A stretch of DNA of 64,000 nucleotides from Rhodospirillales bacterium (GCA_038143065.1 JAYQLI010000035.1:2144894-2208893); one strand, 5' to 3'. Positions 3,296 through 56,077 are shown, numbered from the stretch's first letter. Numbers and translations: made by a program. The notes: generated by a model from the sequence alone, not told the origin.

Positions 3296-4853
3296 TCACT
3301 TGTCCTCACGCGCCCGCTCTTCTTCATTAATGAGTGCTGCGACCACCTTAGCAGAACACAGGACGCCTGGTATTCCCGCTCCTGGATGAGCGCCAGCAGC
3401 GGAAAAATAAAGATTTGGGATATGAGGGTCGCGATTGTGATACCGAAACCAAGCCGATTGTGAAAAAATTGGCGCAATTGAAAAGCCAGCGCCGTGCATG
3501 GATCGGTAATCAGACTCAAAATCTTTGGGTGTCATCCAGAAAACATCGCTAATTACGTCTTCTAGTCTGGGCATTATGGTCTCACTTAACGCCTCTACAA
3601 TTCGGGTGCGCAATTCTGGACCTTTAACTTTCCAGTCTACATTTCCAAGCAGATTGGGCACGGGACACAAAACGTAAAAACTATCACAACCTTCTGGTGC
3701 AAAGCTGGTATCGGTCGCAGTCGGTCTATGCAGATAAAGAGAAAAATCATCCGCCAGCACCTTTCGGTCAAAAATATCGGAGAGCAATTCCTTGTAGCGC
3801 GGCCCCATCCAAATGGTGTGATGCGCCACATTCGAATAACGCTGACGAGTCCCGAAAAACAACACATACAAGCCCATCGAATACTGGGTCATCGCTTCGG
3901 GGAGTAAACGCTTTCTTTTATTTACACCGGGTAACATCTGTGCATAGACCGTTGGCGGATCGCTATTGCAAATAATCCGTTTGGCGCTGAAAACCTCGCC
4001 ATTGGCGGCGCGAGCGCCCGTTGCGTAGCCCCGATTAAGGGTAATTTCCGTAACATCTATGCCTAATCTTACATCTACCCCTACCCGTTCCAGCAGGTTA
4101 TGCAATTCAGCCACCAGTTTGCCAGTACCCCCCATACAAAAGAACACGCCCCAGCGGCGTTCCAGATAATGGATAAGACTGTAGATAGAGGTCGTAGTGA
4201 ATGGATTTCCTCCGACCAGCAATGGGTGAATGGAAAACACCTGACGTAACAATGGATGCTGGATATGCTTATTAACAATACCTGCAACTGTCCTGAAGCT
4301 ATGTAACCGCAATAGCGATGGTATCTGCGCTGCCATCGTCCAGAACTTCACAAATGGCCTCGCGGCAAGCTTCTCAAAACCAACCTCAAAAATGTCCTTT
4401 GAGATTTTCAATAACCTAGCGTAGCCCGCAACGTCTGGGGCATGAAAACGCCTAATTTCAGCGTTCGTATCCTCAATTGATGGACGATAGTCAAACTGTT
4501 GGCCATCATGAAAATAAAATCGATACCATGGATCAAGAGGTCTGAATTCAAGATGATCTTCTCGACGTTCTCCAAACAGCGCAAATAACTCATCAAACAA
4601 AAATGGTGCGGTAATAACTGTGGGCCCGGCATCATGGCGAAAACCGCCTTTTTTCAAAAACCTGAGCGCGCCCACCTATAGCTTGAAGTCTGTCAACCAA
4701 TGTAACTGAATAGCCTTTGGCTCGCATTTGTAGGGCGGCTGCAATTCCTCCAAAACCGGCACCAATTACCAAAACATCGCTCTTTGGCCTAGGCGAGCAG
4801 TCAGTGGGGTCGTTTAGAAAATATGTGGTTTCTTCTTGCCACTTCTGGGACAT
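3296..4853 (-). CDS. crtI: Phytoene desaturase (frameshifted near 4655)
   Basis: VIGAGFGG Rossmann motif, DAGPTVIT, HPLLVGGNPF, GAHPGAGIPGVLCSAK. Confidence 0.95.
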
Positions 4854-4867
4854 GGTTGTCGCACTTT

Positions 4868-5908
4868 TTAAGAAGATGTGACTAGATGAGGTGCTAATGC
4901 AGCGACTGATTTTTGGCAAATTTGCTGCAGCAGTAGTTGAACCGGCATAATAACCTCGGTTATTTCGGCAGGCAGAGTTGCAACCAGCTGTTCGCTCTCC
5001 CTTAGCATTGCGTGCATTTTTTTAGCTGCATCATGCATAGCAAATGATTTTATGATTTCACGTTGCCTTATTTCCAGGTCAACATTGCAACCAGAAACGT
5101 ACCAGCTGTCAAAATCGACTTTTTCTTGCTCATCCAGCGCCTCACGATATAGCACAATAACCGCGTTCGGTGCGCGCCGTTTAAGGTCAGAACCAGTGGC
5201 CTCGGCGCCATCTTTACCCATGAAATTGAGAATATCATTAGCGACCTGGTAAGCGCTGCCAAGACATCGGAAATAAGCGTCTATGCTGGCTGTCGCAATG
5301 CCATGTAGCCCCATGGTTAAGACCCCCTCGAGCGGTGCGGTTAACAAAGGAGCAGTTTTATCGGCAGAAATTTGTAAATAGACTGGCCAGCTGCAAATGT
5401 GGGGGGTGCCGAATTCACATGCTTCTCCAAAAGCTGTTGTTTTCATGTGACTAGCTAGTATTTTGACCAGCATTGGAGACTGCGAACGTTGGGCCGCCTC
5501 GGCTGCTAGTTCAAATGACAAGGCAATCATCCAGTCACCCAGCGCTAATGCAACATTATGCCCGTATTTTGCGCATACAGTAGGGTGCCCCCGACGGAAC
5601 TCGTCACCGTCGCAAATATCATCATGGACCAATGAAGCATTATGCAATATTTCAACTGCGACTGCCCAATGTAATGCGGCCGCTTGGTCAACATTTAGCA
5701 AATGCGCGGCCCTTAGCGCCATTCTCGCTCGCAGCATTTTGCCAGTCTTTGCAAAGTGATGCGCAGCTGCTTCGGCCAGAGGTCGTCCAGGCTTTGGCAG
5801 ACGCGCTGCGATAAATTTCACTAATTGATCATTGGTAGACGTTCGAATGAAAGAGGCTTGTGCGTTGCTGGCGATATTGTCACTCGCTATTGGCGACAAA
5901 TCCTTCAT
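4868..5908 (-). CDS. crtE: Geranylgeranyl diphosphate synthase / polyprenyl synthetase
   Basis: GKMLRA, EILHNASLVHDDICDGD..RRG (FARM), KT motif; first gene after the rhodopsin. Confidence 0.88.
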   Translation of the reverse strand: MKDLSPIASDNIASNAQASFIRTSTNDQLVKFIAARLPKPGRPLAEAAAHHFAKTGKMLRARMALRAAHLLNVDQAAALHWAVAVEILHNASLVHDDICDGDEFRRGHPTVCAKYGHNVALALGDWMIALSFELAAEAAQRSQSPMLVKILASHMKTTAFGEACEFGTPHICSWPVYLQISADKTAPLLTAPLEGVLTMGLHGIATASIDAYFRCLGSAYQVANDILNFMGKDGAEATGSDLKRRAPNAVIVLYREALDEQEKVDFDSWYVSGCNVDLEIRQREIIKSFAMHDAAKKMHAMLRESEQLVATLPAEITEVIMPVQLLLQQICQKSVAALAPHLVTSS

Positions 5909-14281: not shown

Positions 14282-14358
14282 TGGCGGGAGTGACGGGGCT
14301 CGAACCCGCGACCTCTGGCGTGACAGGCCAGCGCTCTAACCAACTGAGCTACACCCCC
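14282..14358 (-). tRNA. tRNA-Asp(GTC)
   Basis: Reverse complement GGGGGTGTAGCTCAGTTGGTTAGAGCGCTGGCCTGTCACGCCAGAGGTCGCGGGTTCGAGCCCCGTCACTCCCGCCA folds as a cloverleaf; anticodon GTC; encoded CCA. Confidence 0.97.
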
Positions 14359-15259: not shown

Positions 15260-15335
15260 TGGTGGGCGATGACAGACTCGAACTGCCGACATCCTCGGTG
15301 TAAACGAGGCGCTCTACCAACTGAGCTAATCGCCC
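15260..15335 (-). tRNA. tRNA-Val(TAC)
   Basis: Reverse complement GGGCGATTAGCTCAGTTGGTAGAGCGCCTCGTTTACACCGAGGATGTCGGCAGTTCGAGTCTGTCATCGCCCACCA; anticodon TAC. Confidence 0.97.
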
Positions 15336-30444: not shown

Positions 30445-31327
30445 ATGTCCAATTCCCAGATTGCTCAAATTCCTGGGGTATATCATCGCAAGATTGGCGA
30501 AATCATTGTGACTGCAGTTTCAGATGGCTATCTGGATGGTGATGTAAGCGTTTTGCGGAATATTGATGAAAACGACGCTATGGCAATGCTCAAGGCGAAC
30601 TTTAGAAAGGGTCGCCGAACTTTCGTTAATGGGTTCATTATCCGTTCAAAAGGGCGCACAGCTCTCGTTGAAACGGGTTCAGGTAATTACCTCTTGCCAA
30701 CTGCGGGAAAGCTTTTGTCAAACGTAATTGCGGCAGGGGTAGACCCAAAAGAGATCGATACTGTCCTTTTTAACCCATATGCACCCTGATCATTCCGCTG
30801 GGTTAACCAATATGGCGGACAACTCGCTTTACTTCCCGAATGCTGAACTTGTCGCTCACGAGAATGAGCCGAAGCATTGGCAAGATGATTCAGCTATGGC
30901 CAGGGCTGATGATCGCGCGAAGAAGTTGTATTTTCAGGCGGCGCGAGAGCAAATCACTCCATATGCAAAGCAAAGCCGTTTCTTCCAAAAAGATGAGGAG
31001 GTTTTCCCTGGCGTGACCGCTCTTAGGGCCCATGGTCATACGCCAGGCCATACCTGCTATATGATTGAATCTGGTGGTGAAAGTCTTTTGATTTGGGGCG
31101 ATATCGTGCATGTGCCCGAGATACAAACCGCACGTCCGGAAGTCGCAATAGCTTTTGATACAGATATCGAAGCGGCTATTGCATCACGCCGCCGGATTTT
31201 TGACATGGCTGAGCAGGATGGCCTTTTGGTTGCGGGAATGCACTTACACTTTCCAACTTTTAGCCACTTGGTGAAAAGTGGGGAAGGTTACAGCTTAATT
31301 CCAGAACCTTGGGCCCACGATATGTGA
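30445..31327 (+). CDS. MBL-fold metallohydrolase, frameshifted
   Basis: THMHPDH, GHTPGH, WGDIVH, GMHLHFP. Confidence 0.85.
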
Positions 31328-31374
31328 GGCGGATATGCTCGTGCCTTGACGATACAGGGCAGCGGGCATCTCAA

Positions 31375-31656
31375 TCAGTCAGTACGGCTGGTCACTTCCA
31401 ACAGATGATAGCCAAATTGGGTCTTAACCGGGCCTTGTACTTCGTTGACTGCTGCGCTGAACACAACCCTATCAAACTCTGGAACCATCTGGCCTGGACC
31501 GAATGATCCGAGATCGCCACCACTCCGACCAGATGGGCAGGATGAGTGCTGTTGCGCCAGCTTGGCGAAGTCTTCGCCGTTGGCAATCTTGTCCTTGAGC
31601 TCCTGGCAAAGCTCCTCGGAATCGACCAAAATGTGTCTTGCTGTGGCGCTCGCCAT
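31375..31656 (-). CDS. ppiC: Parvulin-type peptidyl-prolyl isomerase (single domain)
   Basis: ARHILV, HSSCPSG..GGDLG.F.PGQMVPEFD, KTQFGYHL. Confidence 0.93.
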   Translation of the reverse strand: MASATARHILVDSEELCQELKDKIANGEDFAKLAQQHSSCPSGRSGGDLGSFGPGQMVPEFDRVVFSAAVNEVQGPVKTQFGYHLLEVTSRTD

Positions 31657-32145
31657 GGATCTTCCTTTTGAACTTGGAATTGGGTGAAGGATTAACTTCG
31701 GTTGAGATTTGAGATCGTGGATACAGGGTTCTACGTTGTCAATCAACGATAAACAGTTTCTCGTCTATATTGGTGAGCCATCGCTGCACCACGAAATTAT
31801 AGGCGGCCTGGTGCCCCATTTCTGGTTTCAGGATGAATTTGCGGCCATCCTTCTGTTCAGTTTGTAATTGGCCTTACATGCAGAAGATAATCTGAATTCC
31901 ACGCACTAAAGATCAGTCAGATGTCAGGGCAAGTTTTCCAGCATCCGCATATCTGTGTGTCCGAAATCACAAAAAAGATGCGGCTGAATGAGATAGTCAA
32001 TAAAACCATTGGTAGCTGTACATTTAATGCGCCCACTCTTATGTTGCGCGTCTTAATGACTCGGCTATGCGCCTAACAATCTGCTGATCTTGTGGGGAAA
32101 CAGGTTTCCCAGATAATTGATCTCAGACACCCTGAAAGATAGTGT

Positions 32146-34109
32146 ATGACGGATTTCGAAGGCGTGGTTCCGGCGCTTCAAAAGGCATTGATAAAGCGCG
32201 GATATAAGACCCTGACCTCGGTGCAAAATGCGGTCCTCGCGAAGGAAATGCGTGATGCCGATAGTTTGGTTTCGGCACAGACTGGATCTGGAAAGACGGT
32301 GGCTTTTGGGCTGGCTATGGCCCCAACCCTACTGGCGGGTGCTGATATTTTCGGTCCTGCGCGCGCGCCACTAGCGTTGACAGTTGCCCCGACGCGCGAG
32401 CTAGCCTTGCAAGTAATGCGGGAACTAGATTGGCTCTATGAGTTCACGGACGCCTGCGTGACCTCCTGCGTTGGTGGTATGGACATGCGAGCTGAGCGAA
32501 GAGCTTTGGAACGTGGGGCGCATATCGTTGTAGGTACGCCGGGGCGGCTTCGTGACCATATCGAGCGCGGTTCGCTTGATTTGTCTCGGATCAAGGTGGT
32601 TGTTCTGGACGAGGCAGACGAGATGCTTGATCTCGGCTTTCGAGAGGACCTGGAATTCATCCTGCAGGCCGCGCCGGAAAATCGAAGAACCCTTATGTTT
32701 TCGGCTACTGTACCCAAGACCATTGCCGCTCTCGCTAAACGCTATCAGCAAGATGCAGTCCGTATCACTACTGCAGGTGAAGAACATCAACACGGCGACA
32801 TTGCATATCGTGCGTTGACCTGTGCCCCAACTGATACGGAAAACGCCATCATCAATGTTTTGCGTTACATGGATCCGACCTCGGCTATCGTTTTCTGCGG
32901 CACTCGGGCAACGGTTAATCACCTGACCAGCCGTTTCACCAACCGTGGAATTTCTGTGGTGGCCCTATCGGGAGAACCGAATCAGAGCGCGCGATCCCAT
33001 GCCCTTCAGGCGCTGCGGGATGGCCGTGCAAGGGTTTGTGTTGCGACGGACGTCGCAGCCAGGGGCATTGATTTACCAAACCTAGAATTAGTGATCCACG
33101 CCGATCTGCCGAGGAATTCGGAATCATTATTGCATCGTAGCGGACGCACTGGGCGAGCAGGCCGAAAGGGCGTTGCCACTTTGATCGTGCCTTACCCTCG
33201 CCGACGACATACAGAACGATTGTTAAGAAATGCAAATATCGAGGCGATTTGGGCTAAACCCCCTTCAGTTGAACAAATTCAGGAGCAGGATCGTCAGCGA
33301 GTACTGGAAGATGCGGACCTGAGTGGCGACTTTACTCAGGATGAGCGCATGTTTGCGAATGAGCTCTTGAATCGCTTCGATGCAGAAGCAGTTGCCATAG
33401 CTTTCCTGCGAAAGTTCATGGCGGGATTGTCGGCGCCAGAGGAGCTTCTGGACGCTTGGCCGGATGGCGGCCGCAGCGATCGCAAAGACCACACAGGACG
33501 CAGCCAAGGTGATGAGAGCAGCAAACGCGGAAGCGATTTTGAGGATGGGGTCTGGTTGCGACTGTCTGTCGGTCGAAACCACAGAGCCGAGCCACGCTGG
33601 TTGTTACCAATGCTATGCCGTCATGGCAACATAACCAAGACTCAGGTTGGCTCCATCAAGATATTCGACGCTGAAACTCATGTGGAACTTCGCCCCGAAG
33701 CGCTTGACAAGTTCTTGCAGGCAATAGGCCCCAGTCGCAAGCTCGAGAAGACTATCACGGTTGACCGAGTTGTTGGCGATTCTGTTTCTGCCGGCACAAC
33801 CGCGAAGCGCAGAGGTGTTTCAGGGGTGCAACACGCCGAGCACGGCGATCTCACGGAGACAGTCCAAGACAAGAATCTACGTCGAAAGCTTCTCACATCC
33901 AAACTAACGACTTTGATACCAAGCCTGGTGAGGCTGCACCGAACCAGCGTAAACCCAAGAAGCTTAAAAATTCTAAAAAACCCAAAGTACATAAAGGCAA
34001 GATAAAAACGAACTTCAAGGAGGCCAAATCTCGCAAAGCCAAGCCTGGGGAAGAAAAGCGAGGACGGGCCAAGCCTAAGAAGGGGCGCAGCAAGAGCCCG
34101 ACTGGATAG
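32146..34109 (+). CDS. DEAD-box RNA helicase with DbpA-type RNA-binding domain and basic tail (late frameshift)
   Basis: AQTGSGKT, PTRELA, DEAD, SAT, HRSGRTGRAG; Lys-rich tail in the shifted frame ends at 34109. Confidence 0.93.
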
Positions 34110-34280
34110 TTTGATCCCGACCCATGGGTACCTTCTGGCGCTTGGTTCCAACACAACATCAGCTGAAAGCCTCTAAGTGAGGCTGCCTTGTATAGATGAT
34201 CGTTGATGCCTAGATCGGACGGGAATTGCTAGCAGTATTGTCCAGATACGTTGATATGAGGGCTGGAGTCTTGAGTAAAA

Positions 34281-34952
34281 CTAGGGATTCCATAATTCTA
34301 AGTCTGCAACGGATGCCCGAATTTTAGTTTTTGTATCGTCGCTATCTGCAGAAATTGCTAAACCAACAAGCGTTGTGATTGGTGAACCAAAAGCAGTTAA
34401 AAAGTCTTGGTCTAAATTTACAGACTCTTGAAACCTTCCCAAGCCAGAGGGGCGTAGGATAATCGTTTTACCCTGATTACCCAGGTACGGCGTTAACAAA
34501 AAATCACCTCGTTTATGAGCTCCTCCAAAAACGTACATTAATACCCTGATGGATTTATTGTCGAGCATTGAAAGCATTGACTTATGTTGCAGGGTTGGTG
34601 CGTCTTTTTCCTCCGCGAATACAAAGTACATTGCAAGATTGCGATCATCGCTTCCTTTAATAGTTAGATCCGTTGGGGGAACAGTTTTAGTTACCTCCCA
34701 TGTCCATGAAGCTTTTTTGGTCGATCCATTTTTGCCCTCTCTCGCAGACCAAATCATCGACACGGTTTTGTCAGATTCAACCAACACCTGGTTCATATTG
34801 GTTATGTATTTATTTGATGAGAACACTGAAAATTTTTGATGGGCCCAGCCATCAAAATTGATCGACTCTGCTAATGCTGGATTGATGATAAATACCAACA
34901 TGGCTAGCAGGCACCGAAGTATCTTCCCCGCTGAAAACAATGAATTATTCAT
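34281..34952 (-). CDS. DUF3047-family exported protein
   Basis: Signal peptide; SWTWEV, KGSDDR, AISADSDDT. Confidence 0.7.
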   Translation of the reverse strand: MNNSLFSAGKILRCLLAMLVFIINPALAESINFDGWAHQKFSVFSSNKYITNMNQVLVESDKTVSMIWSAREGKNGSTKKASWTWEVTKTVPPTDLTIKGSDDRNLAMYFVFAEEKDAPTLQHKSMLSMLDNKSIRVLMYVFGGAHKRGDFLLTPYLGNQGKTIILRPSGLGRFQESVNLDQDFLTAFGSPITTLVGLAISADSDDTKTKIRASVADLELWNP

Positions 34953-35004
34953 TCGCTCTTTATGTTCAACTGCAACTAAAGATTAGTTTTAAGCAAAACA
35001 AAAA

Positions 35005-35772
35005 TCATTCCATCACAAGACCACCATCTACATAAATCGTTTGTCCAGTGATGAAAGCCGACCAGGGTGAAGCTAGAAAAAGTACTGGCCCCGCTATGTC
35101 TTCGGGCTTCGCTATACGTCGCAACGGGGTGGCAGAGATAATATCTTCTTTGATATTTTCTCGCACCCTTTCGCTCGCTTTAGTTGGGTAAACTAACCCA
35201 GGGGCAACAGTGTTGACGCGTATTCCAAGGGGGCCAAGTTCAGCTGCTAGTGTGCGCGTAAACCCTACTAGGGCTGCCTTTGCAGTTGCATAGTCGTGGT
35301 ATGGGACGACGGGTCTCGCAATCAGATCAGTGGCAATGTTAATGATGGATCCGTCGGCGCGGGTTAACATGTTTGGAACCGCTGCTTGCACCATATTATG
35401 AGCGGCCTGCACCGCACCCTCAAATTGGCTCTGGTAATCTTGCCAATCTAGGTCCCAATGAAGTTTCCTGCGCTCTGGGTCAAACTCATATGGTCGAAAA
35501 GCATTGTTAACTAGAACGTCGATCTTCCCAAAGGCTTCAATGGTCTCGGAGACTAAGTTTGTTGCACCGTGTTTATTTGTAACATCAGAGCAGATTGCTA
35601 ATGCTACTCCGCCGTTTGTCTCGCAGGCTGCAACAGTTGCTGCCGCGGTTTCGGCATTGGTTAAATAATTTACACCAACGTTGGCCCCTTCGCGCGCAAA
35701 AGCTTGAGCAATTGCCGCTCCTATCCCGCGACCAGCACCAGTGACGAGGACACTTTTTCCGCTAAAATTCAT
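35005..35772 (-). CDS. SDR family oxidoreductase, last gene of the TPP-riboswitch operon
   Basis: TGAGRGIG, VNNA, YATAK (YxxxK), ITGQTIYVDGG; starts 5 nt after the binding-protein stop. Confidence 0.9.
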   Translation of the reverse strand: MNFSGKSVLVTGAGRGIGAAIAQAFAREGANVGVNYLTNAETAAATVAACETNGGVALAICSDVTNKHGATNLVSETIEAFGKIDVLVNNAFRPYEFDPERRKLHWDLDWQDYQSQFEGAVQAAHNMVQAAVPNMLTRADGSIINIATDLIARPVVPYHDYATAKAALVGFTRTLAAELGPLGIRVNTVAPGLVYPTKASERVRENIKEDIISATPLRRIAKPEDIAGPVLFLASPWSAFITGQTIYVDGGLVME

Positions 35773-35777
35773 AGTTA

Positions 35778-36751
35778 TTATTTCGATATGAGATCGCTAA
35801 AGATAACCTTTTTCATCTCTAATTTAGATTTAATTAGTCCTAGTTCTAAGAAAGTGTCAGCGCCTTTTTGCAAGAGCTCGACGTCAAAATGCCCAAGCCC
35901 TTTAGCTTTAGTCGTTTGTGATTGCGCAGAGAGATTTCGGAGTTTGATGATTGCAAGGTTTACCTTTTCGTTTCGCCCGTTAATTGAGCGCGTTATAGCG
36001 ATTTTTGCCGCTTCTTCCGGCTCAGAAATCATCCACGCAGCACTTTTTTGATATGCTTTTAAAAATCGGCGGAGTAGGGGTTTTTGATCCCTGTAATGAT
36101 TCCGACGAACGACAAACATATCGCTTGGTACATTAAGGCTATCTCTGACCTCTATTACATCGACCTCACCAATGCCCTTTAGTTTAGCAACGTAAAGGCC
36201 TGTGTCGGTTGCTGCAGTGGCATCTACTTGGCCTTGCATTACTGGTGCAAAGTTAAGAAGACCAGTTACCTTAATTTTAACATCAGTCTCCTTAAGCCCC
36301 ACCTGATGCAGTAGGACCTGAAGATTTTGCCGAGTTCCGCTGGAAAGGCTGTATACCCCGATAGTCTTCCCTTTTAAGTCTGCAGGTGTCTTGATACCCC
36401 GACCAACCGGTGAAACCACGTTAAAAACATTTTGGGGGTAGATATTGTAAATGGCTACTAAGTCCTCGCCTTTATCGAGAGCTTGATAGAAAGAGGCTGG
36501 ATCTGTGAACGCTACATCCGCTGCTCCTGAGAGCATATTAGCAATTGCGGACCCCCACCTGCGCCTGGGACGTAGCCAAGGTCTATTCCTTCTGCTTTAA
36601 AAAACCCTTTGTCAGGTTCGGCAAGTATATTGGTGATTTCGCTAATTGGTTTACTCCAACCAGCAATACGTACCTTTTCAAGAGTTGCAGACATGGCTGC
36701 AGAGCTGGTGAAAGAGAACGCTAATATCGCTGCCAATAGAGAATGTTTCAT
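35778..36751 (-). CDS. ABC transporter substrate-binding protein, NMT1/THI5 (ThiY/SsuA)-like, frameshifted
   Basis: Signal peptide; KGFFKAEGID, IKTPADLKGKTIG, GQVDA; TAATG overlap with the permease. Confidence 0.85.
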
Positions 36752-37506
36752 TAGAAGGCGCCTTTCTGACGGCTTTGTAAAATCCGCCTCTCAATTACAA
36801 CTATAATTTGATAAAAAAAGAGGCCCATAAGGGTGATCAGGATAAAAAGAGCGAAAATTAAGGTTGTATCCATCATCCCTTGAGCAGCAATGATGCTAGC
36901 TCCTAGCCCCTTGCTGCCTGCAATAAATTCGCCAACCACTGCGCCTACCAAAGCGAGAACTATCGCAACCCGAATTCCAGCTAGAATTACGGGCATGCTG
37001 GTTGGAAGCTTCAGTCGCAATAAGGTCTGAAGTCTGGTCGCACCCAGCATGCGAAAGAGATCTCTTTTCTCCTGCGGAACATTTGATAAACCCGTTATTG
37101 TGTTTTCAAGCAGTGGAAAGAAACAGATTAGAGCTGTGATAATTACCGTAGAGGTCATCCCAAAGCCGAACCAGATTATAAAAATTGGTCCAAGAGCTAG
37201 TTTTGGCACTACCTGGCTGGCAAGCACGTAAGGCCAAAGGAGACGGCGAAGGCGCGGCATTTCAGCAAGTATCGCGCCAATAAGGAAACCGATAACGCAC
37301 CCAAGGACAAATCCCAGCAAAGTCTCAGCACCAGTTACCCAGAGATGTTGCCAAAGAGCACCAGATACAAGGCCATCCCAAAGTGTTTCTGCAACCGCTG
37401 AAGGCGCGGGAAGCACCAGAGGCGAAACTCCGGAGAGCGACACACCCAGCTCCCAGGCGATCAGTACTGCTACGAGCAGAGCAGAGCTGGATATATGCCT
37501 CAACAC
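36751..37506 (-). CDS. ABC transporter permease (ThiX/SsuC/TauC-type)
   Basis: LPAPSAV, PKLALGP, EAA-like loop FRMLGATR, VVGEF..GLG. Confidence 0.9.
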   Translation of the reverse strand: MLRHISSSALLVAVLIAWELGVSLSGVSPLVLPAPSAVAETLWDGLVSGALWQHLWVTGAETLLGFVLGCVIGFLIGAILAEMPRLRRLLWPYVLASQVVPKLALGPIFIIWFGFGMTSTVIITALICFFPLLENTITGLSNVPQEKRDLFRMLGATRLQTLLRLKLPTSMPVILAGIRVAIVLALVGAVVGEFIAGSKGLGASIIAAQGMMDTTLIFALFILITLMGLFFYQIIVVIERRILQSRQKGAF

Positions 37507-38266
37507 TGTCCCGCCCCTAATAGCATTGCCGACCTTACTTTCCGGCAGAGTTTGGAAAAGTGGGCTTCATATCGTAAGTCTGAGCCTCGTGGTCTAGGAA
37601 GGTCTATTTCGACTTCGTGTGTAATAAGCCCTCCTTCCATAACTAAGATTTTGTCTCCCAGGTATGCTGCTTCTCCAATATCGTGGGTGCCAAAAATTAC
37701 TGTCGTGGCGCTGGCTTCAACCAGATTGATTAATACGTCTTGGAGATCCTCACGGGTTAATGCATCAAGAGCAGCGAATGGTTCGTCCATCATTAGGACG
37801 GGGGGGGAGGTAACAAGAGATCGGGCAAGCGCTGCCCGGCTTTGTTGCCCGCCCGAAAGTTGTTCTGGATAACGTTGAGCAAGATGCTTGATGCCAGCGA
37901 GTTCCAGCAGTTCGAGCGCAAATTTTTCATCTGATTTATTTACAGAGCCTTTAAGACTTATCGGTAGTAAGACGTTATCAATTACTGTTAACCATTCTAG
38001 AAGGGATGGCGTTTGAAATACAAAACCAACATCTGAAGATGGTCCATCGACAGGGCTATCGCCAATTTTAATTGAGCCGGACGATGGTGCCAGCAGGCCG
38101 GCAGCCACTTTTAAACATGTAGTTTTCCCGCATCCACTTCTGCCAACCAAGCAATAAAACCCGCCTTTGGGAATGTTAAAGTCAATTCCCAAAAGACCTT
38201 TTTTGTTCCATTAGAAAAGGTATAGCTAACTTTTGATAGGGTAATTGAAGTTGAGTTAGTCTGCAT
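37500..38266 (-). CDS. ABC transporter ATP-binding protein (ThiZ/SsuB-type), frameshift near start
   Basis: GRSGCGKT, LSGGQQ, MDEPFAALD; likely start MQTNS overlaps the luxC-like stop. Confidence 0.9.
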
Positions 38267-39706
38267 AACTGGCCAAATCTTCAGCAGCAGTTTCAGCGCG
38301 AGCCTCTATTTCGGTTATTCTTACTAGGTCAAGCAAATTGAAACGCCCATCGTGGTGCCAGCCGGCTTCTGGTGAGGTCATATCGCCAAGAGCAGTAACC
38401 CGCGTCACCCCGACTTCACCTAACATGGAGGCGAGGTGGAAAAGACGTTCTGGTGTCGCAGAGATTGCCGCCGTTTGGATCAATGTTTTGTAGGGCTTGG
38501 ATAATATTGGCGTTTCTTCAAGGTCGTCGACGGCAACAATTCTGATAGTACGATTAAGACCACTCGGCCTCAGTGCACGGTCTTGCAGTTGAATTGAGAC
38601 AGTCCAATTACCGTTGCATGGTTCTACGACTTTACCACCCAGACGTGTCTCTTCTGCCATACGCCATTCTACTAAGCTGGATGCCTCGGCAAGAGAGAGG
38701 GGGCGCCGTGGGAATTTTCCTCATAACTTGCAAGTGATTGGGCTATGTAAGTTCCAAACGTTTCTGGTGAAATTGCACCACCTTTTTCGACGAAGAAAAC
38801 ATGCGGCGAGTAACATCCCTGCTGGTCATATCGTACAACGTCGTATGCAGCCTTTCTTGCAGTTGAAGAGCCGCGGGAGGGATCAAGGGCTTCTCTCCCA
38901 ATTAGGCCAAAGCTGATTTTATGGCCGTGAGCTAGAAAGCGCGTCGATGCTGGGGCTTGCGCTGCTAATGCTGCGATCGCCGTGTCTCCCCCGTATGCAA
39001 GTGCAACATCTGCTTCCCTAAATAGTCCGGCCTCAAGTTCTGTATTGCCGCCCTGCCACCAGACCAGTGCTATCGTCTTCGCGAGTTCAGGATCGGTTTC
39101 CGCTAAAACGTCATGAAACCACCCTGCAATAAAGGGCTCTGCTGTCGCAACCTTTCCAACGCTTGCGGCCTTCACTAACAGTCCAGCAATCAGTGTCCAA
39201 AGAGGCAGACCAGGAACATTTCCTGCCCAAACATGTGCTAAGAGATCAGGTCCAAAGGCACGACCAAAGCCTCCTTTAACAAGTGGCTGGAATTTGTCGA
39301 GAATACCTGGGTTTGGAAAGTCTTCGGTGATGAAACGCTGAAGTTGCGGTTTTCTGAACGTTTTGAGATAGCCAGTAAGGCCAATCCGCACCATTTCTTC
39401 GTCATAGCCAGTCACTATTGGCAGCAAATGCTCCATTTTTTTTCGAACTGGGTGGCTTCTGTCGAGAAGACGGGCCACTGTCTGGTCAATAGCAGTAAGA
39501 ACCCTATCGACAGGCCAAGTTTTGACACTGTTTCTCGCGTTGAGCCGAACTTTGGAGGCGATGGTTCTCAGATCTGCGGACTGCAAATTTGGCGTTAATG
39601 CAATTAAGCTCTTTTTACCATCTCCGCCATATTGCCTGGGCTCCCAATGAATCCTCTCTGGGTCAAGCCCATGAAGGCGGCCTACGTATTCAACGTCTGT
39701 TGTCAA
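38256..39706 (-). CDS. LuxC-family acyl-CoA/acyl-protein reductase (frameshift near 38715)
   Basis: HVWAGNVP, AYGGD, HGHKISFG, YDQQGCYSP (catalytic Cys), GWHHDG. Confidence 0.9.
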
Positions 39707-40784
39707 TTTGCCGCCGCCGATATCAAAAATTCATCGACCGCCATTGAACACCCCTGAGCCTCGGCACCACTAACGCGCCCATGGAGCATGAAACCTTCAT
39801 CCACCTCAACCCCTGCATCTTCTGTCAATATAGTGGTTACTATATTGAAGTGGGCGAGGTCTGTGTGCGCAAGAACACCAGTCGTGCCCTTGGGGAGGGA
39901 TGAGCCTGTGAGAGGGTCAACGACACGTGTTTTTATCCAATGGGGGCCGGATTTAACAGACGGACAAACGGCATTACCATTGTCATAGAATTGGGTGCTG
40001 AGCTCCGTCATTCCATACATATTGATGCAGTTTGCGCGAGAGACCCCAAAAGCATTTTGAAGGGCATCATAAAATGTATCCAACTCTAACTCTCGGGATT
40101 GGCCTTTAAAACCTCCAGTATCGAGAAGGCGGCTGCCAGGCGGTAGTTGGAAGCGTCTTCCTGACGTTCCATTTCATCTAAAACATGGACGAAGCTGAAA
40201 CTGGCGCCCAGCAAACCGTATGATACACCATTTTCCTCTGCATCTTCCAAGCTGCGGAATAAGCGTTCGTACTCGATGCCATTACTCCCAACAAAGTGGG
40301 AGCTTCTCTCGGAGCCAAAGCATTGCTTGGCGAGTTCAAGATAATGGGCGAGTGAGGAATTCGGCATAGCCACAGGTGGCGGAAAAAGGATGCCAATTTT
40401 TAGTTTTTCTCTATTGCCCATGAAACGTTCGAGGAAATTATGGCGCATTGATGCATTATATACGGCCAAGGTTGGATGGTAGCTTTTCCCTCTTTTCCCA
40501 CCCTGTGTTGTGCCACTTGTCATAAAGGTGGCTTCTGCATTTGTTGGAGAGGAGCATGTAAGGTCAAGCGTCTTGAAGGCGCTAATGGGGACAGCGGGAA
40601 TATCTGCCCAGTGTCGCACCGTTTTGGGTGTTTTTCCTCTTGCTAAGCAAAATTTTTTGAACGGCAGATTATGTTCAAATTGATATGCAAAAATTGAAAG
40701 CGCCATCTGATCGAAATCGGCTTCGACAGCATTTTTATTTTCGATGAAGGTTAGGAGTTTGCTAACAACTTCAGCCTCATCCAT
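39703..40784 (-). CDS. LuxE-family acyl-protein synthetase (frameshift near 40140)
   Basis: FMTSGTT P-loop, DTGGFKG (shifted frame), NMYGMTELS, TED, GR..GCS C-terminal Cys; TTGA overlap with the luxC-like gene. Confidence 0.9.
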
Positions 40785-40842
40785 CGCGCTATCTCCACTT
40801 AGAGGATGACACTAGGAGAGGGATAGGCCGCATCTTTAGAGT

Positions 40843-40967
40843 CCCATTCCCTCCGCCGGTATAATCCGGTTCAGGTTCAAAGGGTCATCGTGCTGACACT
40901 CAATTTTAGTCAAAGACCAATGGTGTCTATCGATATCTCAGCCCTTAAAGCAGGGCCCCCCTACGGT
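40843..40967 (-). ncRNA. TPP (thiamine pyrophosphate) riboswitch
   Basis: Minus strand reads GGGG..GCCCT-AAGGGCTGAGA-(insert)-ACCC-TTTGAACCTGAACCGGATTATACCGGCGGAGGGAA, with all THI-box core elements in order; about 60 nt upstream of the luxE-like start. Confidence 0.93.
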
Positions 40968-40976
40968 AAGCTTCAG

Positions 40977-41006
40977 ACGCTAAGTGGAAAACTGCTCTCG
41001 CGTCAA
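40977..41006 (-). promoter_or_regulatory. Putative sigma70 promoter for the TPP riboswitch operon
   Basis: TTGACG-N18-TAGCGT immediately 5' of aptamer P1. Confidence 0.5.
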
Positions 41007-41111
41007 GATTTATATGATATTTTTGCCGGCCTTATTTTCGAGTTTATCGCAAAAGCAAAAAACACATTTTATGGTCGAAGAGTCTAATTGTGCTCTCCTA
41101 TCTCTGGCTTA

Positions 41112-41962
41112 TTAAGCAATTAAAACTCCTTTGGCGTCGTCTGACGCGATTGTACAACGCCAGTGAACACGACGCTCTTCGATGGGATAATCTGCTGTTG
41201 CAGAATGGAGTGTGCAACGATTGTCCCAGGTAACCAGATCACCAACTTCCCACTTGTGTCGATATTCTGCCCCCGGTGCGATTTGGTATTGTTCGAGTTC
41301 TTGAAAAAGATCCTTCGCCTCTTGATCAGATAATCCAACGATCCGCAGTAAATGTGTAGGATTGAAGTAAAGAGTTTTTCGTCCAGTCTCACTATGGGTG
41401 CGAGTTAAAGGATGTCGCACTGGCGGAAGGTTTCTGTCCTCTGGCTCAAGCAGTTCCGAACTTTTTCGAGATACACCTCCATAAACATAATCTGCTTTCA
41501 AGTTTTGAATTCTCGTCTTAAGGGTATTTGGCAAGGTGTTATAAGCCATAGCCATGTTGGCAAAGAGCGTGTCTCCACCTCTTGATGGGATCTCCAAGCC
41601 AAAAAGTTGTGTGGCTTTGCACCCCTTTGGATCCCAAGGACCATCCGTGTGCCATCCGTGTCCGCGCGCATATACCGGTCTATTTACAGTCCCATCAGCA
41701 TTGCGAGCATTTGTGCCCATGACCGTCAATTCGGGATGATTTGGATGACGAGATTTTTTTACTAAGTGTGGAAAAATTTTGCAAAGCGTCGGCCGTAGCT
41801 GAGAAAGTCTTCAATTGTAAGTTCTTGACCACGAATGCAGATCACACCAGCTTCCAGCCAGGCTTCATAGATCAGCTGAAATTCACTGTCGCTTATGCTT
41901 CGAATATCTATATCGGTGACGATTGCTCCACAGCCAGGACTGGCCTTTTCAATATGCACCAC
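41112..41962 (-). CDS. TauD/TfdA family Fe(II)/2-oxoglutarate dioxygenase, frameshifted
   Basis: GWHTD, GGDTLF, HPL.RTH.ETGRK, WDNRCTLH. Confidence 0.9.
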
Positions 41963-41969
41963 CCATCTC

Positions 41970-42963
41970 CTAATGCAGCTCGCTTTTGATTTCACCAATC
42001 AGTTCAATTGCTTTGATTACATCCTTTTGGGCCAATCCAGGCCACTGAAGCCTAACTATTAGGTGATTGACCCCAAGTTTTTGGTTAAGCCATTGGATCC
42101 TATCTTTCACCATAGCCTTATCGCCAATAATGAAACGAGCTGCTTGGAAAGCATCAAAAGCCTCTTCGAAAGGTTGCCCTGCAACATTGGCGCTACCCCA
42201 CGATGCGTAAGCTGAATACTTGTAAAGCAAGGGTTTCTTGGCAATAGCAAAAGCCTGTTTAGCCGTAGTAGCGACAAAGCATTCCCGTATCATTGGTTTT
42301 TCAGTGGGAGGGCCAAGATTTTTGCTTCGCGTTCTTCATCATAAATCGCGTAATTGCGTTCCAACTGATCCCAATCAGCAGATGGGCTAACTAGCCAGGC
42401 ATCAGCTATTCGAGCAGCACGACGTATTGCGGGTTCTACGCTTGCTCCGATCCAAAGAGGCAGGAGGATCCATTTTTGGGTCTAACAGAGGCGCCAACGT
42501 CTGTTAGCTGAAAGAACTGGCCCTTATGAGAAATGCGGTCCTCTGACCAGAGGCGTCGAATGACGTTGATTGCTTCTGTCGTCCGAGCGGCACGCTTATT
42601 AAAATTGACTCCAAAGGCCTCGAATTCTGCCTTTCGATATCCTAGGCCGACGGCAAGAATATAACCACCTCTGCAGATCCAATCGAGTGTTGCTGACTCT
42701 TCGGCCACTTGAACAGGGTTAGTCATACCTAGGAGCCATATACCTGGGCCCATTCGCATATTCCCCGCTTCTGCAGCAAGTCGTGCTAACAGAATATTAG
42801 CCTGAAACATCTGAAGAGGCTGCGTCAGGTAGTGGTGTGGTGCTATGATAGAGGAAAAACCACATTCGCGAGCAGTGCGCACCTGAGCCAACAAATTTTC
42901 AGTTGCATCATCTAAAGGCGCGTCATCTGAAAATTGTGGATTTATGTAGAGGCCAAAGTCCAT
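41970..42963 (-). CDS. Luciferase-like (LLM class) flavin-dependent oxidoreductase, frameshifted
   Basis: MDFGLY, PHHY, NPVQVAEESATLD, GLGYRKAEFEAFG. Confidence 0.85.
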
Positions 42964-42986
42964 TTGACATCTCTTTCTTGCAGAAA

Positions 42987-44021
42987 TCAGTTTATTTTGT
43001 AGGTGCGAACCGCTGTGTCGTGGAACAGCTGACGTTTTTCGTCGACGCTGTAATCCAGAGTGAGATGCTTGAAAGAATTCCAAAGAGTGTTGTAGCTGCA
43101 ACTGGTCATATCTACAGGAAAGTTTGACTCGAACATGCATCGACTGGTGCCGAAGTGTTCAATGGTATGTTCGTACCAACGTCGAGTTGCCTGCATTAAA
43201 GTTTTGCTAGTTGGTGGTGTGTTATGATACTCCCAGCCAAAGCCGTTGATATCCATATTGATACCACCAAGTTTTGCTAACACATTTTGACAGGTTGCTA
43301 GATCAGCTATTTCTTTCTGCCAGATTGGAAAAATGTCGTCAGCTTTACCCTCATAAGGTCCAATTCCAAGGGGGCCTCCAAAGTGATTTAGAATGATAGT
43401 CGTATCTGGAAATGCCCGTGCTAGTGCTGTCACTTCTTTAAGTTGTGTGTGATAGCACCAGGCTTCAAAAGTCATATTTCTGGGAGCTAATTCGGCAAAC
43501 CCTTCTCTGAATTTTGCATTTGAAAATCGGTCGGGCCCGGATGCATCTTTGGCGCTACGAATCGAATTGTCAGCATCCCACTGGCCCTGGCAGCGAATTC
43601 CACGAAATCGGCCTCCGCCTGCTTGAACATGGGCATCAAGAACTTCGCCAACAGCACTGCCAATATTTAAATTGGCTGAGCCAACGATGGCCGCTGCAAC
43701 CCTGCACTTCCCGTACAAGCCAGAAGCACTCATTGCTGCGATACCATTTACGAACTCTGTTTCTCCAACGCACTTCATGTGCTCTGGACCACTTGCCCTG
43801 TACATCGCTGAGCATTCAATGAACACAGTGCTGAGGATGTTATGACCAGAATTTAAGTCCGACAAAATTTCATCAAGAAGATATTTCGGCGCTACGCGGT
43901 CATGGCGAAACTCCCACAAGTGATGATGAGGATCACAGATCGGCAATTCCGGTTCCAAAGTATCTTCGATGACTTTGTCTAACCATGGTTTATTTTTTGA
44001 AGGAGTCATCATGCCATTCAT
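42987..44021 (-). CDS. Amidohydrolase family protein (Amidohydro_2)
   Basis: DPHHHLW, LNHFGGP, RCMFESNFPVD. Confidence 0.88.
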   Translation of the reverse strand: MNGMMTPSKNKPWLDKVIEDTLEPELPICDPHHHLWEFRHDRVAPKYLLDEILSDLNSGHNILSTVFIECSAMYRASGPEHMKCVGETEFVNGIAAMSASGLYGKCRVAAAIVGSANLNIGSAVGEVLDAHVQAGGGRFRGIRCQGQWDADNSIRSAKDASGPDRFSNAKFREGFAELAPRNMTFEAWCYHTQLKEVTALARAFPDTTIILNHFGGPLGIGPYEGKADDIFPIWQKEIADLATCQNVLAKLGGINMDINGFGWEYHNTPPTSKTLMQATRRWYEHTIEHFGTSRCMFESNFPVDMTSCSYNTLWNSFKHLTLDYSVDEKRQLFHDTAVRTYKIN

Positions 44022-44137
44022 TTTGAAAATTCCCGACGTTACAGCGTGCGCTCGTTAGATATTATCCTCAAGTTGTTTGATTGCATTTAATTGCCGCTAT
44101 CCAATAGGCTGTGGTGATAAATTGGGAGAAAATCCTC

Positions 44138-44936
44138 ATGGAAACTACGACTTCAATTCGTGCTGAAGTTCGCTATGTGAATGCTGAATGGAAAGGTCGA
44201 AAAGAAATTCCTCGAATAGGGTCAAGGAAACACGACGGGCTAACACATCCCGTAAGTCGATAGATATTTACGATGCTCGTCCAGGCCTTGCGAATGGCGA
44301 GATCACGCTGGACGGTTCAGGTTTTACGCTCGCAAAGTTTGTGCACGCCGTAGAAGATTTTCGGGATATTGAGGCCACAGCCCGCCGGTACTACCCAGCT
44401 GTTGAAAAGTTGGTGGCCAATCTTTCTGGAGCAAAGGAGGTATTTGTCCGGGATCATTTGGTCCGAACAGAGATTCCGATTGATTTCAATGATGGATACG
44501 CACGATTTGTTCATTGCGACTATAACATGAAGCGATTGAGGGAGATGTCGGAGTCTTTGTTGGAGACTAGGGTATTGAGCCGAATAAAGACTGGACCTAC
44601 GCATGGTTTAACACCTGGCAGCCTTTTGACAACCCAGCCGTCAACAATCCGCTGGCTTTTATAGATTGGCAGTCATTGCCAGAAGATGACGTAATTGACT
44701 ACTTTTATACAGGTCGAAATAGAGAGAGTTTTGTAGCCGCCCCCGTTTATAATCCAGATCACGTTTGGCGCTATGTGCCGTCAATGTCGCCAGATGAAAT
44801 TCTGATTTTTAAACAGATGGACGGAAGGCGTAATGCATCTGTTTATTGCCCTCATACCTCTTTTGATAATCCTGAAGCTCCGGACGATGCTCCTCCGCGT
44901 CGAAGTGTTGAGACACGGTTGCTGGCAGTGTTTTAG
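44138..44936 (+). CDS. CmcJ/NvfI-family Fe/2OG oxidoreductase, frameshifted
   Basis: TLDGSGF, FVHCDY, NTWQP..NPLA, CPHTSF, RRSVETR. Confidence 0.75.
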
Positions 44937-45024
44937 AGAGATTAAAGAGAGACATTGCTAAATAAAAAATCTTTAACTTAGGTAAAAATTAGGCGTGGTT
45001 CAGTATGCAGAACTGCCGACTCAT

Positions 45025-46142
45025 TTAACGAATTTGTGAAGAATTCGCAGCATCAATCGCTTCAGGTAGAGCCCTTTCAAATGCGGCCAAGTTTTCTGGG
45101 AGACCTGCACTGACTCGAATACAGCGATCTTGAGGCGCTGCAAACGGCATCCGGACAAAAATACCTCTGGCGACAAGTTCATTCAAAATGGCACGCGCAA
45201 AAGCGCCGTCTCTACCGCAGTCTATGGCGACAAAGTTGGCTGCACTGTCCAGGGGTTGGAGATTATTTGCAGCGGCGATGCGCCCAATCTCAGAGCGGGA
45301 TGTTTCAACTAGTTTTCTTACATTGAGTAGCCAGTTTTGATCCCGCACCGAGGCAAGAGCGCCAGCCTGGGCGATACTGTTCACACCAAAGTGGTTACGT
45401 ACTTTATTGAATGCTAAAGCCAGCCCTGCCTCGGCAATTCCATAGCCTACTCTCGCACCAGCCACACCAAAGGCTTTAGAAAATGTGCGGAACCTAATAA
45501 CCCGCGGGTTGTCTACATCGATGGGAGGCGCCGTTAACTCTGGAGCAAACTCAATGTAGGCTTCATCAAGGCAAAGGATTGAGCCTTCTGGCACTGCGTC
45601 AATCATTGTTTGAACGGAATTTGCGTTATGCGAACTTCCCATTGGGTTATCTGGATTAGCTAGGTAAATTAGTGCTGCAGAGTTTGCCATAGATGCAGCA
45701 AGTAAGGCTTCGAGATCTTCTTTGTCGTCTTTGTAGGGCACTAATTCTAGTCGCCCCCAAAGCCTGCTACGTGATAATTAAAGGTCGGATATGCCCCTAG
45801 CGAAGTTACTACTGGGGTCTGCTCAGAGACCGTCAACCTAACTAGATTTCCCAAAAGAGCATCAATACCCTCGCCAACTACGATGTTATCGGGCCGTACT
45901 CCATGCAACTTGGCCAACTCTTGCTTCAGGTCATAATTCTCAGGGTCGCAATAACGCCAGACTTCTGAAGCAGCTAGCCGCATGGCTTCCAAAGCTTTAG
46001 GTGATGGGCCAAATACGCTTTCATTAGCTCCTATACGAGCTTGAAATGGGTTGCCTATTTGCCGTTCCTGAGTTTCAGGTCCAACGAACGGCACGGTTGA
46101 GGGCAATGATGCAGTCAGTGATGTGAATGGATAGTTTTGCAT
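45025..46142 (-). CDS. PLP-dependent aminotransferase class I/II (HisC-like), frameshifted
   Basis: RIGANESVFGPSP, ANPDNPMG, LDEAY, RTFSKAFG.AG.RVGY. Confidence 0.88.
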
Positions 46143-46225
46143 CTATGGCCTTAGATTGGCTGAAATTTAGACTGGTTTATCGCAGCCGATAGAGCCGCTA
46201 AACTTTAACCCTAGCTATATCAAAA

Positions 46226-46561
46226 TCATGGCTCACCTGGAGCTGGATCAAAATGTTCTTCTAGTTTGTTTTTAACGTCCACCCAGTCATCCGCATCGGA
46301 GGGACTGTCTCCTTTTCGGGTGATGTTAGGCCAAGACTCTGAGTAGTCTCTGTTAAACTCTACCCATTTCTCTGCCCCTACTTCCGTATCAGGCTTGATA
46401 GCTTCAATCGGACATTCTGGCTCGCACACACCACAGTCAATACATTCGTCGGGATGGATCACAAGCATATTTGCGCCGACGTAGAAGCAGTCTACAGGGC
46501 ATACTTCCACGCAATCCATGTATTTGCACTTAATGCAGTTATCTGTGACGACGTAGGTCAT
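46226..46561 (-). CDS. fdxA: 7Fe ferredoxin
   Basis: [38 protein letters not shown]. Confidence 0.95.
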
Positions 46562-46718
46562 TGGCTGCTAGCTTCCTAAAGTATGAGAATTAACTTTACA
46601 GGCGGTATATCGCGACCAGAACTTGCAATCAATCAAAGTTGCGTCCGAAAAGTTTGGCCATTCAGAAGCAATAAATTATCCTCACGGCGACTCACAAGTC
46701 CATGGAGACAAAATCCCG

Positions 46719-56001: not shown

Positions 56002-56077
56002 GGGCCTGTAGTTCAGTGGTCAGAACGCGCCGCTCATAACGGCGTTGTCGCAGGTTCGAATCCTGCCGGGCCCACCA
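56002..56077 (+). tRNA. tRNA-Ile2(CAT), lysidine-type
   Basis: GGGCCTGTAGTTCAGTGGTCAGAACGCGCCGCTCATAACGGCGTTGTCGCAGGTTCGAATCCTGCCGGGCCCACCA; CAT anticodon; paired 1:72 (not initiator); C4:G69 and C5:G68 TilS determinants. Confidence 0.88.

Follow-up and report, generated by a model that had tools for sequence, protein, structure and literature searches.

LuxE adenylates a carboxylic acid, moves the acyl group to Cys364 in its flexible C-terminal TRxxKGCxLS motif and passes it to a cysteine of LuxC, from which NADPH releases the aldehyde (PMC9157457), and according to a preprint nothing in the sequence cluster of LuxC has been characterised apart from LuxC itself (10.1101/2025.08.11.669332). 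OarX, a FabG-like reductase flagged in 2002 (Rodionov et al.), is reported to cluster with thiamin genes behind thiamin pyrophosphate (TPP) riboswitches in 87 genomes, and Oliveira-Filho, Rodionov and Hanson (2024) proposed for it a part in reducing thiamin acetic acid, 4-methylthiazole-5-acetic acid or a pyrimidine carboxylic acid via the aldehyde to the alcohol (PMC11223231). Relatives of all three proteins are encoded together behind a TPP riboswitch in a 64,000-nt stretch of a Rhodospirillales bacterium (GCA_038143065.1, JAYQLI010000035.1:2144894-2208893; the whole stretch is called the window below, and positions count from its first letter), the genome of which consists of 52 contigs (4.63 Mb, 97.6% complete). 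The six genes encode a LuxE-like protein, a LuxC-like protein, the ATPase, permease and binding protein of an ATP-binding cassette (ABC) importer, and a short-chain dehydrogenase/reductase (SDR) related to OarX. With somewhat better than an even chance, this set represents a TPP-repressed salvage or repair operon in which the LuxE-like, LuxC-like and OarX proteins would recycle an oxidised vitamin B1 acid.

The first-pass annotation of this DNA had placed a TPP riboswitch directly ahead of six minus-strand genes that overlap or nearly touch, and this anatomy was confirmed throughout (Table 1). The aptamer is the only RF00059 match in an Rfam scan of the whole window, scores above the gathering score, ends immediately before the short leader of luxE, and aligns with 8 homologous aptamers in which the common core (CTGAGA and ACCTGA...CCGG...CCGGCG..AGG) is invariant. 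Each of the six genes matched its expected family, and their spacing could be read from the closely related locus L005, in a Rhodospirillales metagenome-assembled genome (MAG) that is 97.5% identical over 6.9 kb (window 34201-41100) and carries all six genes intact (360, 483, 254, 251, 324 and 255 aa); there, all of them overlap or sit no more than 5 nt apart (the ATPase start, for example, overlaps the luxC stop by 11 nt). The claimed absence of luxA/B, luxD and known thi enzymes was borne out by profile scans of the six genes, and the LuxD model (PF02273) found 0 matches in the whole window genome. As regards the mode of control, no terminator-like site was found in the leader 3' of the aptamer, and the minimum-energy fold of the leader holds the GGAG and AUG region within a hairpin (z-score -1.5, no better than shuffles); that the leader might act as a translational expression platform is a guess from this folding model.

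The LuxE-like and LuxC-like proteins are distant members of their families and not lux genes, because the luminescence equivalogs of NCBIfam were missed by far (NF052244 for LuxE, 29.5 against 550 bits; NF052251 for LuxC, 64.2 against 750 bits). The intact LuxE-like protein of L005 matched PF04443 at 64.3 bits (cut-off 24.9) over residues 24-352 of 360, the two window fragments alone reaching 22.1 and 20.2 bits, below that cut-off, and PDB entry 7xc6_E was matched at 1.6e-17. PF05893 covered the full length of the LuxC-like protein of L005 (279.6 bits), and the match to 7xc6_A (2.3e-15) aligned the catalytic cysteine. The residues that would carry the acyl group are conserved among the 80 related loci introduced below: the LuxE-like C-terminal motif GR..G...[KQRV]GCS, followed by ..(E/D)FL, has its cysteine in 80 of 80 loci and is seen in the window too, TGG[FY]K (the LuxE Lys motif) occurs in 79 of the 80 LuxE-like proteins, and every locus but L041, which is gapped there, keeps the LuxC-like motif Y[DE]Q.GC (79 of 80). 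The GR..G...GCS motif corresponds to the TRxxKGCxLS motif with Cys364 as described for LuxE (PMC9157457).

At E <=1e-10, more than 2000 database entries are related to the LuxC-like protein, and lengths of 479-483 aa prevail among the best 120. One genome per species was scanned for this protein, which yielded at least 533 encoding places, and the best 80 were kept as the set of related loci. Most hosts are Alphaproteobacteria (Bosea, Azospirillum, Roseomonas, Roseovarius, Yoonia, Cohaesibacter, Asaia and many marine Rhodospirillales MAGs), joined by Betaproteobacteria (Polaromonas), Gammaproteobacteria (Pantoea) and one short contig binned as an actinomycete. None of these hosts is known to be luminous. 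The presence of the operon in soil, plant and ice bacteria (Azospirillum, Bosea, Pantoea, Polaromonas) shows that the seawater setting given to it by the first-pass annotation was too narrow.

Riboswitch and gene order recur with the genes. Of the 9 loci examined with Rfam, 8 gave an RF00059 match ~1.2 kb ahead of luxC, the ninth (Polaromonas) giving 50.2 bits (E 9.6e-9), and a covariance model built from the nine aptamers (R1) and run on the 80 loci matched at the same distance and on the same strand in 75 of them, 67 at 82-140 bits and 8, all Polaromonas, at 28-42 bits; the five loci without a match are L071, for which upstream sequence is lacking, and L008, L015, L032 and L045, for which it is present. 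The order luxE-luxC-...-SDR was kept in all 72 loci long enough to be judged, the remaining 8 ending at contig edges. In 55 of these 72 complete loci the arrangement is riboswitch-luxE-luxC-ATPase-permease-binding protein-SDR, and in the other 17, including Pantoea and marine Rhodospirillaceae, the importer genes are missing (riboswitch-luxE-luxC-SDR), so the conserved core consists of riboswitch, luxE, luxC and SDR, and the importer is a frequent insert. Conservation does not extend to the flanks, where 397 open reading frames (ORFs) fell into 258 clusters, and no thi genes were found among the 10 representative flanking proteins scanned from these clusters. A chance association is excluded, because 75 of the 80 related loci share riboswitch and gene order.

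For the control, 400 Pseudomonadota genomes were drawn evenly as a single sample, and a LuxC-family gene is present in 30 of them. In 8 of the 30 the SDR is present at >=57% identity, each time adjoining the binding protein, and R1 matched at 7 of these 8 SDR-coupled LuxC loci and at the eighth once more upstream sequence was included; at the 21 other LuxC loci of the sample it matched in none (0/21), nor did Rfam RF00059 (0/20). The riboswitch is specific to the SDR-coupled LuxC clade, since it is found at 8 of 8 against 0 of 21 loci, and the expectation of the first-pass annotation that luxEC clusters should be enriched for TPP riboswitches was met both here and among the 80 related loci. 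In seven of the control genomes (L127, L129, L131, L133, L134, L136 and L137; six from one genus, g92, and one from another) the LuxC-family match lies inside a frame of ~820-830 aa without a TPP riboswitch; judged from the frames, these may be LuxC fusion proteins.

The SDR of the window had been labelled simply as an SDR. The family holds, and the protein can be placed more narrowly as an OarX-family member on the strength of reciprocal best matches, a well-supported clade and the model NF006393, the comparison having been made with riboswitch-linked relatives. With NF006393 the operon SDRs score 276-279 bits, just under the cut-off of 292 and far above any other SDR model, and the next paralogue in the window genome reaches 139 bits; riboswitch-linked relatives pass the cut-off (301.7 and 390.1 bits), which was exceeded in 1 of 14 control genomes. 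The operon SDR was also searched in 401 genomes from the phylum to which G439 (the genome of locus L042) belongs, with matches in 4 genomes: four matches at 48-50% identity (three genomes) all stand directly behind RF00059 on the same strand, and the single match at 39% identity has no RF00059 directly upstream. The neighbourhoods at three of these other-phylum loci read riboswitch-thiT-TPK-SDR-thiD-thiM, riboswitch-thiT-TPK-riboswitch-SDR-BluB-like-thiD and riboswitch-SDR-BluB-like. Searched back against the window genome, the other-phylum SDRs retrieved the operon SDR at 211-227 bits and the next paralogue at 107-124 bits (reciprocal best matches).

In the maximum-likelihood tree, 14 operon SDRs formed their own subclade (96/96), and together with the four other-phylum sequences and four proteobacterial relatives (97/91) they formed one clade (100/99), with seven window-genome paralogues outside. 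The alphaproteobacterial relative in L119 lies in the arrangement riboswitch-thiM-thiE-thiD-SDR, and no riboswitch was found within 14 kb of the proteobacterial relatives in L117, L118 and L120. The motifs YxxxK and TG..RGIG are present in 72/72 and 71/72 operon SDR copies, respectively. Two further observations concern the surroundings of these relatives. A convergent ABC operon of LIV type adjoins the thiM-thiE-thiD-oarX operon in L119, and in the other phylum OarX is followed by a nitroreductase-fold protein (L116:1818-3017, L114:701-1933) that matches the model of BluB (5,6-dimethylbenzimidazole synthase) at 255 bits against a cut-off of 150. This BluB-like protein may be the partner called 'FmnO' where OarX neighbours are described (PMC11223231).

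Four of the six genes are interrupted in the window (Table 1). All four breaks are homopolymer length differences from L005, and when window 31247-46699 was set against L005 (12.5 kb), single homopolymer bases missing from the window made up 11 of the 14 indels; the same type of indel splits neighbouring genes, e.g., the TauD-like gene upstream of the riboswitch, and SDR genes across the window genome often appear as adjacent split fragments. Samples from estuary, marine, seawater, sediment and salt-marsh settings contain the stretch (20 public runs, 14 studies), and contigs of 4 runs (4 studies; 3 DNA and 1 RNA-library) showed the intact state at all four break sites, among them those of run X1, which are intact there although they differ from the window at only 11-12 other positions per ~3 kb. 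That the operon of this genome is a decaying, functionless set of pseudogenes, as the number of interrupted genes might suggest, is extremely improbable in view of the kind of the breaks, the intact contigs and the many other genes of the assembly split likewise, and this reading was rejected in favour of homopolymer errors. Because the breaks have no counterpart in L005 or the four runs, the operon genes are intact in nature, and the 'repaired operon' of which the first-pass annotation spoke needs no repair; when genes are called on this genome, many false pseudogenes are to be expected. The RNA-library run X15 has contigs over 35000-37263 and 37321-41000, and it was not counted as proof of transcription, because these contigs, 7-8 kb long, run into neighbouring genes and DNA may be present in the library.

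Table 1. Features of the window around the riboswitch-luxE-luxC-importer-SDR operon, with frame breaks and other genes
Feature	Position	Strand	Details
TPP riboswitch aptamer (RF00059)	40831-40972	-	cmscan 65 bits, gathering score 54.3, E 1.7e-10, model 1-105 (full)
Leader between aptamer and luxE ATG	40785-40830	-	46 nt
luxE-like acyl-protein synthetase	39703-40784	-	intact 360 aa; two ORFs in window (40086-40784, 39703-40083)
luxC-like acyl-thioester reductase	38256-39706	-	intact 483 aa; pieces 38672-39706 (PF05893 2e-56) and 38256-38660 (9e-19)
ABC transporter ATPase	37500-38266	-	intact 254 aa; PF00005 9e-29; window frame 37500-38192, first ~24 codons out of frame; start 38266 derived from alignment with L005
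ABC transporter permease	36751-37506	-	251 aa; PF00528 1e-29; SsuC/TauC-like by NCBIfam, below cut-offs
NMT1/THI5-family periplasmic binding protein	35778-36751	-	intact 324 aa, signal peptide; ORFs 36512-36751, 35778-36536
OarX-family SDR, FabG-like	35005-35772	-	255 aa; NF006393 278.5 bits
Frame break in luxE	40159		1 nt missing, GGG>GG vs L005
Frame break in luxC	38714		A missing, A5>A4 vs L005
Frame break at ATPase start	38199-38200		two extra A vs L005
Frame break in binding protein	36551		G missing, G6>G5 vs L005
TauD-like dioxygenase gene	41112-41998		split in window (41112-41729 / 41762-41998)
DUF3047 gene	34281-34952		
tRNA gene	14285-14358		ordinary; 69-72 bits for the three tRNA genes
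tRNA gene	15263-15335		ordinary
tRNA gene	56002-56074		ordinary

Two neighbours were tried as operon members and rejected: beside the operon, the DUF3047 gene was found nowhere but in the window and L005, and the TauD-like gene accompanies it in these same two, with relatives near the operon in L040 and L076. TauD-family dioxygenase genes adjoin the riboswitch in all four places, and in four marine loci (L018, at 4504-5703 on the minus strand, L022, L024 and L028) a luciferase-like FMN monooxygenase gene stands divergently beside it (SfnG/RutA/SsuD-like, below all cut-offs). Both the TauD and the luciferase-like families include enzymes that release aldehydes from sulfonates, and it is speculation that such neighbours might feed OarX. 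The window genome has 2 RF00059 matches in all, the second (G000:C35:2015783-2015886, minus strand, 60.5 bits) being part of L096 (G000:C35:2004000-2016500), where it precedes a LivK/H/M/G/F-type ABC importer and then a Gfo/Idh/MocA oxidoreductase, that is, a second riboswitch-controlled set of importer and oxidoreductase. Large secondary replicons carry the operon in Azospirillum, and the copy of A. lipoferum 4B (L151; AZOLI_RS19245-19270) is on plasmid AZO_p2 (208568-214409), with RefSeq names of long-chain fatty acid--CoA ligase, acyl-CoA reductase (GO: bioluminescence, IEA), ABC components and 3-oxoacyl-ACP reductase.

For the mechanism we infer the enzymatic steps, the substrate and the action of the riboswitch as follows. 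Scarce TPP would permit expression of the operon, and the importer of NMT1/THI5 type would bring in a carboxylic acid derived from one of the vitamin B1 moieties; the 17 importer-less loci imply another transporter there or an acid formed inside the cell. The LuxE-like protein would adenylate the acid with ATP and load it on its own C-terminal cysteine, the LuxC-like protein would accept the thioester on its active-site cysteine and reduce it with NADPH to the aldehyde, and the OarX-family SDR would reduce the aldehyde to the alcohol, which would re-enter thiamin synthesis; if the alcohol is hydroxymethylpyrimidine (HMP), it would then be phosphorylated by ThiD. The first-pass interpretation is in this way partly supported: its anatomy, its RF00059 call, the linkage to the riboswitch and the LuxE and LuxC cysteines have stood, and its novelty, its generic SDR, its repair and its seawater setting have not.

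The binding protein and the thiamin genes of the hosts bear on the choice of substrate. The binding protein is the best conserved gene product of the operon (58-81% identity across loci), matches PF09084 at 120.7 bits (1e-34) in the window and 156.1 bits in its intact L005 form, and has a hydrophobic N-terminus in the 6 copies viewed; its family includes the pyrimidine binders ThiY and THI5, and its best PDB matches are the uncharacterised 3qsl and 4nmy. Thiamin genes were counted over the operon-bearing genomes searched (38 or 39 depending on the gene). All but one of 39 have ThiD (38; the one without it is an incomplete MAG), and ThiC is present in 28 of 38 (missing in 10, among them Roseovarius litoreus), ThiG in 33 of 38 and TPK in 2 of 39, and ThiM was over cut-off in 18 of 38, 15 of these matches running along the profile, 1 being a 59-residue fragment and 2 being partial 27-29-bit matches inside long frames. 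In the window genome, ThiD (310.7 bits) and ThiE (179 bits) were found, and the profile searches gave no match to ThiC, ThiM, TenA or TPK and only partial matches of 22-31 bits to ThiG, so from its gene content the organism seems to need both thiamin moieties without a known thiazole kinase. Four marine MAGs with the importer-less operon (G031-G034) have no ThiC, ThiG or ThiM.

HMP would be usable in every host, because it needs only ThiD, and free hydroxyethylthiazole or intact thiamin is a less likely product, because most hosts have no known kinase for it (ThiM, TPK). Within the scheme outlined above, the most likely substrate by gene content would be 4-amino-2-methylpyrimidine-5-carboxylate, giving HMP, to which we assign about an even chance; thiamin acetic acid and 4-methylthiazole-5-acetic acid, taken together, are appreciably less probable, and another B1-derived acid has only a small chance. 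The pyrimidine acid is preferred at about even odds only, because the binding protein is equidistant from ThiY and SsuA, the published oarX associations lean towards thiazole and the argument from ThiM is weak. In general terms, the substrate is probably a small heteroaromatic acid and not myristate.

Several observations weigh against the proposed salvage or against its pyrimidine version. The binding protein is about equally distant from ThiY (3ix1, 2e-7) and from the sulfonate binder SsuA (2x26, 7.6e-7), and the class of its ligand is thus not fixed by sequence. The window genome keeps ThiE without ThiG and ThiM, from which it follows that an unknown thiazole route must exist, which weakens any argument from the absence of ThiM. 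The 28 hosts with ThiC are probably prototrophs, and the operon does not track auxotrophy. In L008, L015, L032 and L045 (4 of 79 loci), no riboswitch was found in an Rfam search even at E 0.01. According to the published work on OarX, the gene clusters more often with thiazole than with pyrimidine genes (occasionally also with an 'acyl-CoA synthetase'), and in C. glutamicum, which has OarX, the three acids and two oxo forms gave no rescue of auxotrophs (PMC11223231). Finally, the substrate of OarX need not come from an acid, because its relatives occur elsewhere without LuxEC.

This last point leads to a different use of the same enzymes. Rather unlikely, in our estimate, is that the three proteins act on a B1-related compound otherwise than in acid-to-alcohol salvage, be it that the LuxEC aldehyde itself is wanted, that OarX acts on another carbonyl (a thiazolone or a damage product) or that a B1 antimetabolite is detoxified. 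The OarX relatives without LuxEC would fit such a role, as would the conclusion of the OarX study that the substrate may be an as yet unknown derivative (PMC11223231), and the lack of the importer in the 17 complete loci fits a substrate formed internally; however, the adjacency of LuxE, LuxC and SDR in fixed order throughout the 72 complete loci fits consecutive steps on one substrate, and shut-off by TPP is not obviously expected of detoxification. Less probable still is a compound unrelated to B1, such as a fatty or sulfonated acid, with the riboswitch serving to spare or bypass TPP-dependent enzymes under thiamin scarcity. The only characterised LuxE and LuxC act on fatty acids (PMC9157457), the best NCBIfam matches of the transporter are of sulfonate/taurine type (all below cut-offs), and TauD-like or luciferase-like monooxygenase genes adjoin the operon in some loci. 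Against this, the clade mates of the SDR belong to thiM-thiE-thiD or thiT-TPK-thiD operons preceded by TPP riboswitches, the luminescence models were far missed, and the TauD-like and luciferase-like neighbours occur in few loci and outside the riboswitch-controlled unit. Recycling of a B1 acid by LuxE-like, LuxC-like and OarX proteins is the interpretation that we favour.

The first-pass annotation remarked that it knew of no description of this route; the same reduction had already been proposed for OarX, and the only published genetic test of it, in C. glutamicum, came out negative (PMC11223231). The reductive-salvage hypothesis is therefore already in print, and the LuxE-LuxC-OarX operon was not found in print: our literature search returned no paper linking LuxE or LuxC to thiamin or to a TPP riboswitch and, for ThiY, ThiXYZ and formylaminopyrimidine, nothing relevant to the operon, the supplements of PMC11223231, which list OarX genomes and their neighbours, lying outside that search, and in the main text of that paper 'lux' occurs 0 times. 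What the operon adds is a set of likely partner enzymes for OarX, a B1-linked reductase of unknown function since 2002. In what we put at hundreds of species, OarX stands behind the same riboswitch in a fixed arrangement with a dedicated enzyme for acid activation, a reductase for the thioester and, in most cases, an importer, all of which the C. glutamicum test may have lacked; the partnership with LuxEC may explain why a test in an organism with OarX alone would fail, and the stalled OarX hypothesis becomes directly testable in tractable, harmless bacteria. It also allows database names to be corrected, e.g., the fatty acid--CoA ligase, acyl-CoA reductase and 3-oxoacyl-ACP reductase labels of A. 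lipoferum 4B.

Taken in full, the proposal that LuxE-like, LuxC-like and OarX proteins form an unrecognised ATP/NADPH pathway returning an oxidised B1 acid, most likely the pyrimidine carboxylic acid, to a usable precursor is a tentative one. If it is true, estuarine, marine, soil and plant-associated communities would have hidden B1 vitamers in the form of such acids, and an extra salvage route and extra vitamers would enter the B1 cycle of waters and soils, where most bacterioplankton, as reported, cannot make B1 (PMC10881298). OarX would then be the aldehyde reduction that ends several converging routes, fed by LuxEC from acids here and by a BluB-like flavoenzyme or luciferase-/TauD-like oxygenases elsewhere, and the luminescence-type LuxEC reductase would prove to have a second natural role, with a small cofactor fragment as its substrate.

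Compared with known systems, the operon shares with carboxylic acid reductases (CARs) and aldehyde reductases the net reduction with ATP and NADPH from acid to aldehyde to alcohol that is proposed here. A CAR is one large enzyme that carries a phosphopantetheine arm, whereas here two small proteins would pass the acyl group from cysteine to cysteine. ThiXYZ, which is riboswitch-controlled, resembles the operon in its NMT1/THI5-family binding protein (ThiY, 3IX1), its SsuC/TauC-like permease, its ATPase and its TPP riboswitch, but the operon binding protein is only a distant relative of ThiY and no nearer to it than to SsuA. With the LuxC-LuxE fatty acid reductase (7XC6, PMC9157457) the operon has in common PF05893 and PF04443, both thioester cysteines, the LuxE Lys motif and adjacent overlapping genes; it differs from luminous LuxC-LuxE in low similarity (E 1e-15 to 1e-17), in the order E then C, in having no luxA/B/D/G and in its control by a TPP riboswitch. 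OarX as described so far (PMC11223231) is likewise a FabG-like SDR behind a TPP riboswitch, and the operon SDR falls into one clade with SDRs near thiD, thiM, thiE, thiT and TPK, but here its gene closes an operon that also encodes LuxE-like and LuxC-like proteins and usually an ABC importer, and it forms a subclade of its own that just misses NF006393.

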